Made by a program: the position numbers. This document shows, in pieces, positions 3,001 through 9,000 of a DNA stretch of 13,028 nt (the first letter of the stretch is position 1; the number at the start of each line of letters is the position of its first letter). Origin of the DNA: a virus. Its lineage: Duplodnaviria; Heunggongvirae; Uroviricota; Caudoviricetes. The DNA is taken from IMG/VR virus record IMGVR_UViG_2693429621_000007; one strand, written 5' to 3'.

Positions 3001-6000
3001 TGCGCCTGCATGGGCGTCTGAACATCAGTCCACGCTGAGCGCCGGGTATCTTCAGACCCATACTGATATGCCAGGCAGCGATGACCTGAAGGGCATTAAC
3101 GTGAAATACCGTTATGAGTTTACGGACACGCTGGGGCTGATTACGTCATTCAGTTATGCCAACGCTGAAGATGAGCAAAAAACGCATTACAGCGATACCC
3201 GCTGGCATGAGGATTCCGTGCGTAACCGCTGGTTCAGCGTGATGGCGGGGCCGTCTGTGCGCGTGAATGAATGGTTCAGCGCGTATGCGATGGCGGGCGT
3301 GGCTTACAGCCGTGTGTCGACCTTCTCCGGGGATTATCTCCGCGTAACTGACAACAAGGGGAAAACGCACGATGTGCTGACCGGAAGTGATGGCGGTCGC
3401 CACAGCAACACGTCTCTGGCGTGGGGGGCTGGCGTGCAGTTTAACCCGACCGAATCCGTGGCCATTGACCTTGCTTATGAAGGTTCCGGCAGTGGTGACT
3501 GGCGCACTGACGGTTTCATCGTGGGTGTCGGTTATAAGTTCTGATTAGCCAGGTAACACAGTGTTATGACTGCCCGCTGGTTCAGGCGGGCTTTTTGTGG
3601 GGTGAATATGGCAGTAAAGATTTCAGGTGTACTGAAAGATGGGGCGGGTAAACCTGTCGTAAATTGTGCGATTGAACTGCGGGCCAGAAGAACCAGTCCG
3701 ACCGTTGTGGCACACGTTGTTGCCACTTGCGTGACGGACAATAACGGTGCTTATGTGATTGAGGCTGAGCCGGGGTATTACGAGGTTGCGCTTCACTGTA
3801 ACGGCTGGCAGCCAACCCGTGTCGGGGATATTGATGTGGCACCGACTGATGCACCGGGGACACTGAACGCGTTTCTGAATGCACCAAAGGATGGTGATTT
3901 ACGTCCGGAGGTGATGAAGTGTCAGCGCCAGTGATATAAGACGGTAATTCGCCATTTGGATTGTCCGCTCCACCCAACATGTTGTTTCCTTAAGGTTCTC
4001 ACACCAGAAAGGACATCAACATGCTGAGCAGAGAGGACTTTTACATGATAAAGCAAATGCGCCAGCAGGGCGCGTACATCGTCGATATTGCGACTCAGAT
4101 TGGTTGCTCTGAACGGACGGTCAGACGCTACCTCAAATACCCTGAACCGCCAGCCAGAAAGACCCGCCACAAAATGGTTAAGCTGAAACCGTTTATGGAT
4201 TACATCGACATGCGCCTGGCAGAGAATGTCTGGAATAGCGAGGTTATCTTCGCGGAGATTAAGGCAATGGGTTATACGGGCGGACGTTCCATGCTGCGTT
4301 ACTACATCCAGCCCAAACGTAAAATGCGTCCGTCAAAAAGAACAGTTCGCTTCGAAACTCAGCCTGGATACCAGCTCCAGCATGACTGGGGCGAAGTTGA
4401 GGTGGAGGTTGCCGGGCAACGGTGCAAAGTTAACTTTGCGGTTAATACGCTGGGGTTCTCCCGCAGCTTCCATGTCTTCGCCGCACCAAAACAGGATGCT
4501 GAGCATACCTACGAATCACTGGTTCGCGCCTTCCGCTACTTCGGTGGTTGTGTGAAAACGGTGCTGGTTGATAACCAGAAGGCTGCGGTGCTGAAGAATA
4601 ACAACGGGAAAGTCGTGTTCAACTCCGGATTCCTGTTGCTGGCTGACCACTATAACTTCCTGCCACGGGCATGCCGTCCACGCAGGGCCAGAACAAAAGG
4701 TAAGGTTGAGCGGATGGTGAAATACCTCAAGGAGAACTTCTTCGTCCGGTACCGCAGGTTCGACAGCTTCACTCATGTCAATCAACAACTGGAGCAATGG
4801 ATAGCCGATGTGGCTGACAAACGGGAGCTTCGCCAGTTCAAAGAAACGCCGGAACAGCGCTTCGCGCTGGAGCAGGAACATCTGCAGCCGTTACCGGATA
4901 CAGACTTCGATACCAGTTACTTCGATATCCGCCATGTGTCCTGGGACAGCTATATCGAGGTTGGTGGTAATCGTTACAGCGTTCCCGAAGCGCTGTGTGG
5001 TCAGCCGGTATCGATACGAATATCGCTGGATGACGAGTTGCGGATCTACAGTAATGAGAAACTGGTGGCCTCACATCGCCTCTGTTCAGCATCGTCTGGC
5101 TGGCAGACAGTGCCGGAGCATCACGCCCCGCTCTGGCAGCAGGTCAGTCAGGTGGAACATCGACCACTGAGTGCCTATGAGGAGCTGTTGTGATGCATGA
5201 ACTGGAAGTCCTGCTGAGTCGCCTGAAAATGGAGCATCTGAGTTATCACGTTGAAAGCCTGCTGGAACAGGCAGCTAAAAAAGAGCTGAACTACCGGGAG
5301 TTCCTGTGCATGGCGCTACAGCAGGAATGGAACGGCAGGCATCAGCGCGGTATGGAGTCCAGGCTGAAGCAGGCTCGTCTGCCGTGGGTCAAAACGCTGG
5401 AGCAGTTCGACTTTACCTTCCAGCCGGGCATCGACCGTAAGGTTGTCCGGGAACTGGCTGGTCTGGCGTTCGTGGAGCGCAGCGAAAACGTGATCCTGCT
5501 GGGCCCTCCTGGTGTCGGAAAAACTCATCTGGCCATAGCTCTTGGCGTGAAAGCGGTGGATGCGGGACATCGGGTACTGTTTATGCCACTGGACAGACTG
5601 ATCGCGACACTGATGAAAGCGAAACAGGAAAACCGGCTGGAGCGTCAGCTACAGCAACTGAGTTATGCCCGGGTGTTGATCCTGGATGAAATAGGCTATC
5701 TGCCGATGAACAGAGAGGAAGCCAGTCTGTTCTTCCGGCTACTGAACCGTCGATATGAAAAAGCGAGCATCATACTGACGTCAAACAAAGGGTTCGCAGA
5801 CTGGGGAGAAATGTTCGGAGATCACGTACTGGCAACAGCGATCCTGGATCGGCTGCTACATCACTCAACCACGCTGAAATCAGACTATGCCGGTATCCGC
5901 ACCGGCGGGCGCGTGCTGGCGGTGAACAGCCAGACCCGGACGCTGACGCTCGACCGTGAAATCACGCTGCCATCCTCCGGCACCACGCTGATAAGCCTGG

Positions 6001-9000
6001 TTGACGGGCAGGGGAATCCGGTCAGCGTGGAGGTCCAGTCCGTCACCGACGGCGTGAAGGTAAAAGTGAGCCGTGTTCCTGACGGTGTTGCTGAATACAG
6101 CGTGTGGGGGCTGAAGCTGCCGACGCTGCACCAGCGATTGTTCCGCTGCGTGAGTATCCGTGAGAACGACGACGGCACGTATGCCATCACCGCCGTGCAG
6201 CATGTGCCGGAAAAAGAAGCCATCGTGGATAACGGGGCGCACTTTGACGGCGACCAGAGCGGCACGGTGAATGGTGTCACGCCGCCAGCGGTGCAGCACC
6301 TGACTGCCGAAGTCACCGCAGACAGCGGGGAATATCAGGTGCTGGCGCGCTGGGACACGCCGAAGGTGGTGAAGGGCGTGAGCTTCCTGCTCCGTCTGAC
6401 CGTAACAGCGGATGACGGCAGTGAGCGGCTGGTCAGCACGGCCCGGACGACGGAAACCACTTACCGCTTCACACAACTGGCGCTGGGGAACTACAGGCTG
6501 ACAGTCCGGGCAGTAAATGCGTGGGGGCAGCAGGGCGATCCGGCGTCGGTATCGTTCCGGATTGCCGCACCGGCAGCGCTGTCGCGGATTGAGCTGACGC
6601 CGGGCTATTTTCAGATAACCGCCACGCCGCATCTTGCGGTTTATGATCCGACGGTACAGTTTGAGTTCTGGTTCTCGGAAAAGCGGATTGCGGATATCAG
6701 GCAGGTTGAAACCACAGCACGCTATCTTGGCACGGCGCTGTACTGGATAGCCGCCAGTATCAATATCAAACCGGGCCATGATTATTACTTTTATATCCGC
6801 AGTGTGAACACCGTTGGCAAATCGGCATTCGTGGAGGCTGTTGGTCAGCCGAGTGATGATGCATCCGGTTATCTGGATTTTTTCAAAGGCGAGATAGGGA
6901 AAACCCATCTGGCTCAGGAGCTGTGGACGCAGATTGATAACGGTCAGCTTGCGCCTGACCTGGCTGAAATCAGGACGTCCATTACGGATGTCAGCAATGA
7001 AATCACGCAGACCGTCAATAAGAAACTGGAAGACCAGAGTGCGGCAATTCAGCAGATACAGAAGGTTCAGGTTGATACAAATAATAACCTGAACAGCATG
7101 TGGGCTGTGAAGCTGCAGCAGATGCAGGACGGACGCCTTTATATCGCGGGTATTGGTGCCGGTATTGAGAACACCCCTGACGGCATGCAGAGTCAGGTGC
7201 TGCTGGCGGCGGACAGGATTGCGATGGTTAATCCTGCGAATGGCAACACAAAACCGATGTTTGTTGGTCAGGGCGATCAGATATTCATGAACGACGTGTT
7301 CCTGAAACGCCTGACGGCCCCCACCATTACCAGCGGTGGAAATCCATCGGCATTTTCCCTGACTCCGGACGGAAAGCTGACCGCTAAAAATGCGGATATC
7401 AGTGGCAGTGTGAATGCGAACGCCGGGACGCTCAACAATGTCACGGTAAATGAAAACTGTACGATTAAGGGCATGCTGGAGGCGACTCAGGTCAGAGGTG
7501 ACTTCGTTAAAGCTGTATCCAAATCATTTCCGAAACAGGCTGGTACGTGGGGTAACACGGAAACACCAAACGGGACGGTTACAGTCACCATAAGCGATGA
7601 TCATAACTTTGACCGCCAGATTATTATTCCGCCCATTATTTTTAACGGTATAGCGTATGACGATCCGGGGAGCGGAAATAACCCAGGAGGCACGCGATAC
7701 ACGGGTTATGGTTTTGAAGTTCGCAAAAACGGCGTATTAATCGCATCCAGAGAAACTAAAGGTGCCATTCCCGGTAGTTACAGTGCAGTTATTGATATGC
7801 CTAGTGGTGGTGGTAGCGTCACTCTGGAGTTTAAGATTTTCCAGAAAGGCAATCAGGGGGCAGGCAATATCACCGACTGTACGGTGATTGTGACCAAAAA
7901 AGCGGCTTCCGGCATCAGTATTCGTTGAAATATTTATAACCCCAATAAATGGCGTCAGGAATGACGCCTTTTTTATTGCAGAAAAGCGAGAGGTAATTAT
8001 GCGTAAAGTTTGTGCAGCCATTTTGTCCGCAGCCATTTGCCTGGCCGTATCCGGTGCGCCTGCATGGGCGTCTGAACATCAGTCCACGCTGAGCGCGGGG
8101 TATCTTCATGCCCGGACCAACGTTCCCGGCAGTGATGATCTGAACGGGATTAACGTGAAATACCGTTATGAGTTTACGGATACGCTGGGGCTGGTGACGT
8201 CATTCAGCTATGCAGGAGACAAGAATCGCCAGCTGACCCGTTACAGCGATACCCGCTGGCATGAAGATTCCGTGCGTAACCGCTGGTTCAGCGTGATGGC
8301 GGGGCCGTCTGTGCGCGTGAATGAATGGTTCAGCGCGTATGCGATGGCGGGTGTGGCTTACAGCCGTGTGTCGACTTTTTCCGGGGATTATATCCGCGTA
8401 ACTGACAATAAGGGGAAAACGCACGATGTGCTGACCGGAAGTGATGACGGTCGCCACAGCAACACGTCTCTGGCGCACTGACGGTTTCATCGTGGGTGTC
8501 GGTTATAAATTCTGATTAGCCAGGTAACACAGTGTTATGACAGCCCGCCGGTTCAGGCGGGCTTTTTTGTGGGGTGAATATGGCAGTAAAGATTTCAGGT
8601 GTACTGAAAGACGGCACAGGAAAACCGGTACAGAACTGCACAATCCAGCTGAAAGCAAAACGTAACAGCACCACGGTGGTGGTGAACACGCTGGCCTCAG
8701 AAAATCCGGATGAAGCCGGGCGTTACAGCATGGACGTTGAGTACGGTCAGTACAGCGTTATTCTGTTGGTGGAAGGATTCCCGCCGTCACATGCCGGGAC
8801 CATCACCGTGTATGAAGATTCCCGACCCGGTACGCTGAATGATTTTCTCGGTGCCATGACGGAGGATGATGCCCGTCCGGAGGCACTGCGCCGTTTTGAG
8901 CTGATGGTGGAAGAGGTGGCGCGTAACGCGTCCGCGGTGGCACAGAACACGGCAGCCGCGAAGAAATCAGCCAGCGATGCCAGCACATCAGCCCGTGAGG

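Follow-up and report, generated by a model that had tools for sequence, protein, structure and literature searches.

Does Shigella sonnei encode a protein in which the ATPase of an insertion sequence is fused to the receptor-binding part of a phage tail? The question is raised by an open reading frame (ORF) in a window of 13,028 nt, by which is meant the whole stretch of DNA analysed here: the entire contig CXDP01000133.1 of a Shigella sonnei draft assembly (GCA_001247735.1), free of Ns. As the first-pass annotation proposed, an in-frame ORF of 912 amino acids is found in the ORF listing at 5190..7928 on the plus strand, starting from a GTG. From its natural start, the ATG at 5193, the product has 911 residues and is the protein of the public record CSR21448.1, a 'host specificity protein' (5193..7928, +). 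The analysis presented below indicates that the fusion is most likely an assembly by-product and at best a dead single-strain pseudogene, which supports the earlier opinion that it is a dead by-product and not a designed protein.

The two-part IstB and J architecture described for the ORF is confirmed by Pfam. Positions 5193..5876 (+) encode residues 1-228 of the 265 residues of IS21 IstB, comprising the N-terminal domain and the AAA+ core, and are identical there to WP_000544828.1. The IstB_IS21 family matches residues 8-229 of the ORF over profile positions 3-224 of 238 (E 2.4e-81; 273.2 bits, with the curated cut-off at 24.1), and the Walker A (GPPGVGKT) and Walker B (VLILDE) motifs are both intact in the translation, as had been claimed. 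IstB is incomplete: identity to the canonical 265-residue protein ends at residue 228, leaving 37 residues missing. Two junction codons follow, AAA-TCA (5877..5882, +), which encode K-S and were delimited by a three-way alignment of the window, IS21 and intact J. The remainder (5883..7928, +) encodes residues 485-1165, with the stop, of a tail-tip protein designated J', and is 100% identical to the finished-genome sequence L015 from position 7885 of the latter on. The expected continuation into J after the HHSTTL motif is therefore present; the count of about 683 J codons given for it is to be corrected to 681 codons plus the two junction codons.

The J part contains two Ig-like domains, the tail-tip fibre region and the C-terminal receptor-binding domain. 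The Pfam families above cut-off are Ig_J, Ig_J_second, Phage_Tail_Tip and Ig_GpJ_C, the last of which is complete (ORF residues 775-910, profile 1-134 of 135). FNIII-A_GpJ and Phage-tail_3, which belong to J residues 1-484, are absent from the fused ORF by Pfam and present in the intact 1165-residue J'. A J gene in a tail cluster follows M, L, K and I; here, IS21 istA lies upstream of the fused ORF. This istA is intact and encodes a 390-residue transposase (4021..5193, +; Pfam rve and Mu-transpos_C_2). Coupling of istA to istB had been proposed through a four-base ATGA overlap. The overlap exists but is of one base within TGATG, with the TGA at 5191-5193 and the ATG at 5193-5195, and the same 1-nt overlap is annotated for the IS21 copy in L001. 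An open frame across the junction, the retention of this natural istA stop/istB start overlap, intact Walker A and B motifs and a complete Ig_GpJ_C domain are the features that favor a real, expressed fusion with a function of its own, in which an AAA+ DNA-binding loader would be tethered to a receptor-binding domain by way of istA coupling. The in-frame state itself is a one-in-three outcome with the J frame open to its own stop, and a special explanation is unneeded.

The insertion sequence occupies 3920..5882 (+), corresponding to nt 1 to ~1964 of the ~2130 of IS21, with 99.9% identity to E. coli/EIEC IS21 copies; within it, 3920-5878 is 100% identical to the copy in L001. The left inverted repeat is present and starts at 3920. 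The final ~167 bp are gone, and the right inverted repeat (...GGCGTTGACA in the full copy, its right end located in L001) is absent from the window. Since alignment reveals neither a full IstB C-terminus nor a right inverted repeat, the truncation of IS21 is real in the contig.

At the junction, IS21 identity ends at 5878, or at 5882 if one deleted T is allowed, and J identity begins at 5883, in agreement with the abrupt and non-homologous junction first described. Positions 5879-5882 read ATCA, the next four IS21 bases once a T is dropped between 5878 and 5879. This T is retained in 10/10 intact IS21 copies of chromosome CP104423.1, and the frameshifted IstB of 236 residues predicted from its loss is absent from a collection of 15 billion proteins; a natural IS21 variant was rejected on these two grounds. 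The longest word common to IS21 and J' is 17 nt and is located elsewhere. A false join via a shared k-mer was rejected because no such k-mer lies near the junction. In J', the breakpoint (nt 1453 of the gene) is off any identity boundary between the two J paralogues; in IS21, it lies ~167 bp inside the element and not at its end. Partial microhomology is present, TGAA(T)ATC in IS21 resembling a TGAAATC that lies 12 nt upstream in J'.

The two sides of the window belong to two lambdoid prophages. Window 1-4347 aligns with a locus-A prophage (L005 6436-10782) at 99.77% identity, and window 5883..13028 (+) is a block of 7146 nt with 100.000% identity and no gaps to a locus-B prophage of finished S. 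sonnei genomes (L015 and L019). In GCA_965230885.1 and GCA_040188975.1, ~685-689 kb separate locus A from locus B, and the two have the same orientation. The contig is thus not collinear with the finished genomes, its two halves mapping ~685 kb apart. This result does not support the earlier proposal of an IS21-associated deletion within one prophage, because a simple deletion does not join loci so placed in the order of the contig, and J' is intact elsewhere. A single-prophage deletion and a tandem duplication of one tail region were both rejected, since the J genes of the two loci differ and the loci are ~685 kb apart; an IS-end-mediated adjacent deletion was rejected because the breakpoint is internal to IS21.

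On the left, locus A contributes J_A, its tail-tip gene (1..2877, +; Pfam Phage-tail_3, Ig_J, Ig_J_second, Phage_Tail_Tip and Ig_GpJ_C), which is truncated at its 5' end by the contig end and encodes 1159 residues when complete in finished genomes. It is followed by lom_A, an Ail/Lom outer-membrane protein gene of 199 codons (2945..3544, +; Pfam Ail_Lom 1-199 of 199, E 4e-129), and by an N-terminal fragment of stf_A, the side tail fibre gene, with 122 codons (3566..3934, +; Pfam phage_tail_N, profile 1-104 of 134). IS21 cuts stf_A at 3920, and the ORF runs 15 nt into the left end of the element. The exact 122-residue product occurs in 543 blocks of the collection, finished S. sonnei chromosomes among them.

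On the right, J' is an intact gene of 1165 codons at locus B (L015 6433-9930) with no IS21 nearby, and it was intact in every long assembly examined (6 places shown and 14 similar places not shown). Upstream of it in finished genomes are Phage_min_tail, Phage_tail_L, NLPC_P60 and Lambda_tail_I. J_A and J' are distinct genes, with 80% protein identity and ~91-92% DNA identity. Downstream in the window are lom', a shortened Ail/Lom gene of 160 codons (7999..8481, +; Pfam Ail_Lom, profile 1-159 of 199) whose exact product is found in 1212 blocks of the collection; stf', a side tail fibre gene (8574..11663, +; Pfam phage_tail_N, Phage_fiber_2 and Collar) with 1029 codons from the first GTG and 1027 as called; and tfa, for the tail fibre assembly protein (11663..12244, +; Pfam Caudo_TAP). 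The contig ends on this side ~20 nt short of an IS1 copy, the insA start of which is at L015 15051.

The IS21 body between the two sides matches intact copies of the element and not the locus-A copy. All ten locus-A places shown (L005-L014; nine of them on contigs longer than 4.7 Mb) have IS600 copies inserted in IS21, one after the position equivalent to window 4347 and one after that equivalent to 5017, and the element ends at IS21 nt 1098, with later nucleotides absent. The istB part of the window therefore cannot derive from locus A as it is known. Window 4547 is a G, as in 10/10 intact IS21 copies elsewhere, and the locus-A copies carry a private A (10/10). The exact istA protein is encoded on at least 1000 contigs, and the 4.82-Mb chromosome CP104423.1 has at least 10 intact copies of IS21, none of the 10 inspected being truncated at the junction point or lying beside a J gene.

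A further sign of mixing is found in J_A and lom_A. These genes differ from locus A at 10 sites, and at 10/10 the locus-B paralogue has the same allele as the window. The B alleles form five patches, both flanks of which are identical between the paralogues for at least 38 nt, and 422 other A-specific sites are kept. The pattern is that expected from short-read confusion of paralogues. The 10 alleles are only partly explained by a full collapse of bubbles at a single k value, since the A allele was retained in other closed bubbles.

The contig is composite, J' is intact in other genomes and the junction is unique. Misassembly was rightly named at the outset as the main risk, and the contig is probably a short-read assembly composite across repeats, its IstB::J ORF most likely being no gene of S. 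sonnei and yielding no protein. The repeats confused would be IS21, at 10 or more copies in one chromosome, and the paralogous lambdoid J and lom genes. In such a scheme, the left third would come from locus A, where IS21 cuts stf; the IS21 body would come from copies like the intact ones that it matches and not from the locus-A copy; and the right half would come from locus B, with J' as an intact, ordinary tail-tip gene. The assembly path would leave IS21 at nt ~1964 and enter J' in frame at nt 1453, thereby creating the ORF, and the junction itself may have arisen from chimeric reads or from a gap-closing or scaffolding step and not from the chromosome of the isolate. Short reads cannot legitimately bridge a 2-kb repeat present at 10 or more copies. 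On the other hand, assemblers rarely create a junction without some spanning reads, which counts against a composite origin. Also against it are the lack of a shared word and of a paralogue-identity boundary at the breakpoint, and a deletion with microhomology that resembles illegitimate recombination. In addition, the long assemblies compared may all represent lineages other than that of the isolate. The mean read length in a global short-read collection of S. sonnei, which may or may not include this isolate, is 59 nt (PMC7373316). A search by accession found no literature on the isolate or its assembly method.

The chief alternative is a real junction private to the isolate, in which illegitimate recombination joined the interior of one of the many IS21 copies (nt ~1964, with one T lost) to J' nt 1453 and left a functionless in-frame pseudogene. 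This is credible, though short of probable. It would account for a join that no shared k-mer explains, a breakpoint away from any boundary of paralogue identity, and a 1-nt deletion with imperfect microhomology. Strain-specific IS insertions are found in 75% of S. sonnei genomes, and IS-linked change is common in Shigella (PMC7373316); accidental IstB chimeras have also been called elsewhere, such as P0033 (an IS66 domain with IstB) and P0048 (rve with IstB). Against these points, the flanking genes are present in hundreds of S. sonnei assemblies and the junction on one contig only. A breakpoint internal to IS21 offers transposase chemistry no role as an explanation, and a mixture of repeat copies is demonstrable within the contig. 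Moreover, the B-type alleles at window 147, 668 and 684 match J' upstream of the breakpoint, suggesting that the 5' part of J' was among the reads of the isolate. Even were the junction real, the link from the recombined IS21 copy to the left junction in stf_A would still be a repeat guess of the assembler, and in the order of finished genomes a join of A on the left to B on the right would imply a tandem duplication or an excised circle, not a deletion.

The exact 911-residue protein is found on this contig only, its neighbors being those of 543 and 1212 blocks. Among 5.8 billion cluster representatives, none spans both halves (best coverage 54%). The junction has no match in 5426 complete E. 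coli genomes, in plasmids or in phages, and the junction 34-mer CAACCACGCTGAAATCAGACTATGCCGGTATCCG was not found in GTDB species representatives or in JGI metagenomes. A third S. sonnei locus with a truncated IS21 beside a J fragment found no support in a screen that covered protein representatives and the longest contigs: it was seen at 0/10 IS21 places in one finished chromosome, and no representative spans the halves.

Set against its favorable features, a functional fusion is very improbable, for there is no second occurrence and thus no sign of selection, IstB lacks its final 37 residues, a stretch that may include functional elements (sensor II lies in the C-terminal helices of the Geobacillus homologue, PMC11208146), the loss of J residues 1-484 would make joining the tail tip impossible, a cytoplasmic ATPase would have no route for placing a receptor-binding domain outside the cell, and an element without its right end cannot transpose. 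The lesser proposition that the junction is real in one isolate and that IstB 1-228::J 485-1165 is translated through istA coupling is hardly more than conceivable. If true, it would attach a trimeric receptor-binding module to an AAA+ oligomeriser that binds DNA, and it would still be an unselected single-strain accident. Whether or not the junction is real, the product has neither the C-terminus of IstB nor the N-terminal region of J.

An assembly composite thus being the preferred reading, CSR21448.1 serves as a caution. Its combination of IstB_IS21 and Ig_GpJ_C would look new to architecture mining, yet no other genome supports it and the contig mixes repeat copies. If the junction were real, it would add one more case of Shigella prophage decay with no functional consequence.

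With IS21 IstB (WP_000544828.1), the fused ORF shares identical residues 1-228, an intact preceding istA, the one-base overlap and Walker A/B; it differs in that J sequence replaces the last 37 residues and the element lacks ~167 bp and the right repeat. The IstB part also matches the solved chains of Geobacillus IS5376 IstB (PDB 8q3w, 8q4d and 5bq5) over residues 14-231 of 254. The J part aligns to residues 484-1131 of the 1132-residue tip attachment protein J of lambda (PDB 8iyk), including the receptor-binding C-terminal domain; relative to lambda J and intact J', the fused ORF lacks J residues 1-484 and has no M, L, K and I upstream. The stf_A::IS21 arrangement with nested IS600 at Shigella locus A belongs to the same landscape of decaying lambdoid prophages full of IS1, IS600 and IS21 (PMC7373316). 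Junctions of that type coincide with the ends of an IS and are shared by hundreds of assemblies, whereas the IstB::J junction lies inside the IS and was seen a single time. Also comparable are P0033 (307 aa, an IS66 C-terminal domain with IstB; 1 contig) and P0048 (475 aa, rve with IstB; 3 contigs), which are likewise single-sequence clusters with IstB joined to neighboring sequence. In these, the partners are other transposase pieces, while in IstB::J the partner is a phage structural protein.

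The fused ORF runs from 5190 to 7928 on the plus strand and encodes 912 amino acids from a GTG in the ORF listing. The natural istB start is the ATG at 5193, where the public record calls a gene of 911 amino acids. The translation opens like IstB and contains both Walker motifs, A as GPPGVGKT and B as VLILDE; after ...HHSTTL it continues as J protein sequence through to the end of J. By Pfam, IstB_IS21 covers residues 8-229 (profile 3-224 of 238, 273 bits), with Ig_J, Ig_J_second, Phage_Tail_Tip and a complete Ig_GpJ_C located C-terminal to it. The ORF listing, translation and Pfam domains therefore bear out the coordinates, Walker motifs and two-part architecture that the first-pass annotation had claimed. 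The istA/istB overlap it described as ATGA does exist but involves one base only, shared by the istA stop TGA (5191-5193) and the istB ATG (5193-5195); the identical overlap is annotated in reference copies. Antisense ORFs of 585 amino acids (328-2085, minus strand) and 342 amino acids (5880-6908, minus strand) lie within both J genes and are probably by-products of J composition and not genes.

Positions 3920-5878 are identical to L001, a full IS21 copy from E. coli Ecol_542. Beyond that match, L001 carries 107 nt more of istB and then the right inverted repeat ending in ...GGCGTTGACA, the complete element being approximately 2130 bp. At the junction the window reads ...CACGCTGAA, followed by ATCA and then J, as compared with ...CACGCTGAATATCAAAGG in reference IS21. 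Apart from one T missing relative to the reference, 5879-5882 are the next IS21 bases, and identity with J begins at 5883 (GACTATGCC). The window thus retains IstB residues 1-228 of 265 and no right end of IS21; alignment to the full element upholds the suggested truncation, with both the IstB C-terminus and the right inverted repeat absent. No word common to IS21 and J', the intact J of a second prophage (locus B), exceeds 17 nt, and the junction has none nearby. There is imperfect microhomology between TGAATATC in IS21 and TGAAATC in J', 12 nt upstream of the breakpoint. A hypothetical frameshifted IstB with the T deletion is absent from the protein collection.

The right half of the window is locus B. 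Positions 5883-13028 (7146 nt) match L015 and L019, two S. sonnei copies of this locus, at 100.000% identity, starting from J' nt 1453 (residue 485). An intact J' of 1165 amino acids stands upstream of lom' in S. sonnei chromosomes that are finished or nearly so, 53G (HE616528.1) and CP019689.1 among them; the customary tail genes come before it (tape measure, M, L, K and I), and IS21 is absent. The lom' gene, which adjoins the fused ORF, occurs in 1212 indexed blocks of the collection, and the contig ends about 20 nt short of an IS1 copy. The lom' product itself (7999-8481) is a shortened Ail/Lom protein of 160 amino acids against a 199-position profile; since it is identical in the 1212 blocks, its truncation is fixed in S. 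sonnei and is not a contig error. The 53G locus (L017) lacks 63 nt of 11787-11849 near the tfa start, kept in L015 and L019, and its tfa is called as 150 instead of 193 amino acids. In two draft S. sonnei assemblies (L018 and L020, 10518-13665), the 1027-amino acid stf' is called in pieces (a 572-amino acid C-terminal part and small ORFs), which suggests that stf' is disrupted or carries a sequence error in some strains.

The left half derives from another prophage, locus A, to which positions 1-4347 match at 99.77%. Its 122-amino acid stf fragment running into the IS21 left end occurs in 543 indexed blocks, finished chromosomes among them. In all ten long S. sonnei assemblies examined, the locus-A IS21 is split after the equivalent of 4347 by a complete IS600 and cut off after the equivalent of 5017 by a second IS600, inverted and partial (both insertions fall within L005 10783-13896). 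No IS21 sequence beyond nt 1098 is found at locus A in these assemblies; instead of J', a tail-fibre C-terminus and an ABC-transporter operon come next. Two genomes have both loci on one contig; B comes first, A follows in the same orientation, and 685-689 kb separate them, so a join of A-left to B-right is not what a deletion would yield, and the IS21-associated deletion proposed earlier is not supported. Some IS21 copies elsewhere match up to 15 nt of 3905-3919, just upstream of the left inverted repeat (for example, mcr-1 plasmid pPK8217-MCR1 from 3911 and locus L028 from 3905), which may reflect target-site preference or chance.

The window is the whole of contig CXDP01000133.1 (GCA_001247735.1), which has no N, and the fused protein is deposited as CSR21448.1 under the name 'host specificity protein [Shigella sonnei]'. 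Against locus A in the ten long assemblies there are only 10 differences in J_A and lom_A, at the same sites in every copy (147, 668, 684, 1097, 1104, 1105, 1266, 1272, 2983 and 2986), and all 10 carry the locus-B paralogue base. They form five patches, each with at least 38 nt of paralogue-identical sequence on either side, and the A allele is retained at 422 other sites where A and B differ. Paralogue confusion among short reads is much likelier than a set of five tiny gene conversions arising independently within a single isolate; a single-k bubble-collapse model did not reproduce the pattern exactly. The IS21 body agrees with intact copies and not with the locus-A copy: at 4547, a private G-to-A change marks all ten locus-A fragments, while the window and 10/10 intact copies elsewhere have G. 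At least 10 intact copies reside in one 4.82-Mb chromosome (CP104423.1), all retaining the T and none truncated at IS21 nt 1964. A 2-kb repeat at 10 or more copies is beyond bridging by short reads. The link from the stf_A::IS21 left junction to anything right of IS21 is not trustworthy. Mean read length in a global S. sonnei short-read collection was 59 nt (PMC7373316), although this isolate may not belong to it.

By exact look-up, the 911-amino acid protein occurs in no other contig, and its 90% cluster otherwise holds only partial J' proteins starting downstream of the junction. A junction-spanning 430-amino acid query met no representative above 54% query coverage; the junction was not found in 5426 complete E. 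coli genomes, plasmids or phages, nor its 34-mer in GTDB species representatives or JGI metagenomes. Short-read assemblies often hold a few misjoins at repeats. Together with the composite contig, the unique junction and the intact J' everywhere else, this makes an assembly artefact the somewhat favored explanation of the IS21/J' junction. A real rearrangement, private to the isolate and functionless, is a less probable but serious contender: IS21 and J' share no k-mer, the breakpoint lies off the paralogue-identity boundaries, and the junction combines a small deletion with microhomology, yet the composite contig and the single occurrence of the junction count against it. That the ORF is an expressed, meaningful fusion protein is very improbable.

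An in-frame fusion is a 1-in-3 outcome for which selection is not needed. Single-sequence chimeric IstB ORFs are also present in public assemblies as P0033 (307 amino acids, IS66 C-terminal domain and IstB) and P0048 (475 amino acids, rve and IstB), and their existence indicates that IstB fusions to neighboring sequence recur as accidents. The ORF observation stands. As a biological feature, the 'unusual architecture' does not merit pursuit; in practice it serves to illustrate a draft-assembly chimeric ORF that is now in protein databases. Even with a real junction, the element, lacking its right end, cannot transpose. The IstB part would stop 37 residues short of the full protein; in a Geobacillus IstB homologue, sensor II is located in the C-terminal helices (PMC11208146). 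Residues 1-484, which make up the FNIII-A_GpJ and Phage-tail_3 region of intact J', are missing from the J part, and we infer that a tail tip could not incorporate this part. In λ gpJ, it is residues 484-1131 that align with the J part of the fused ORF.
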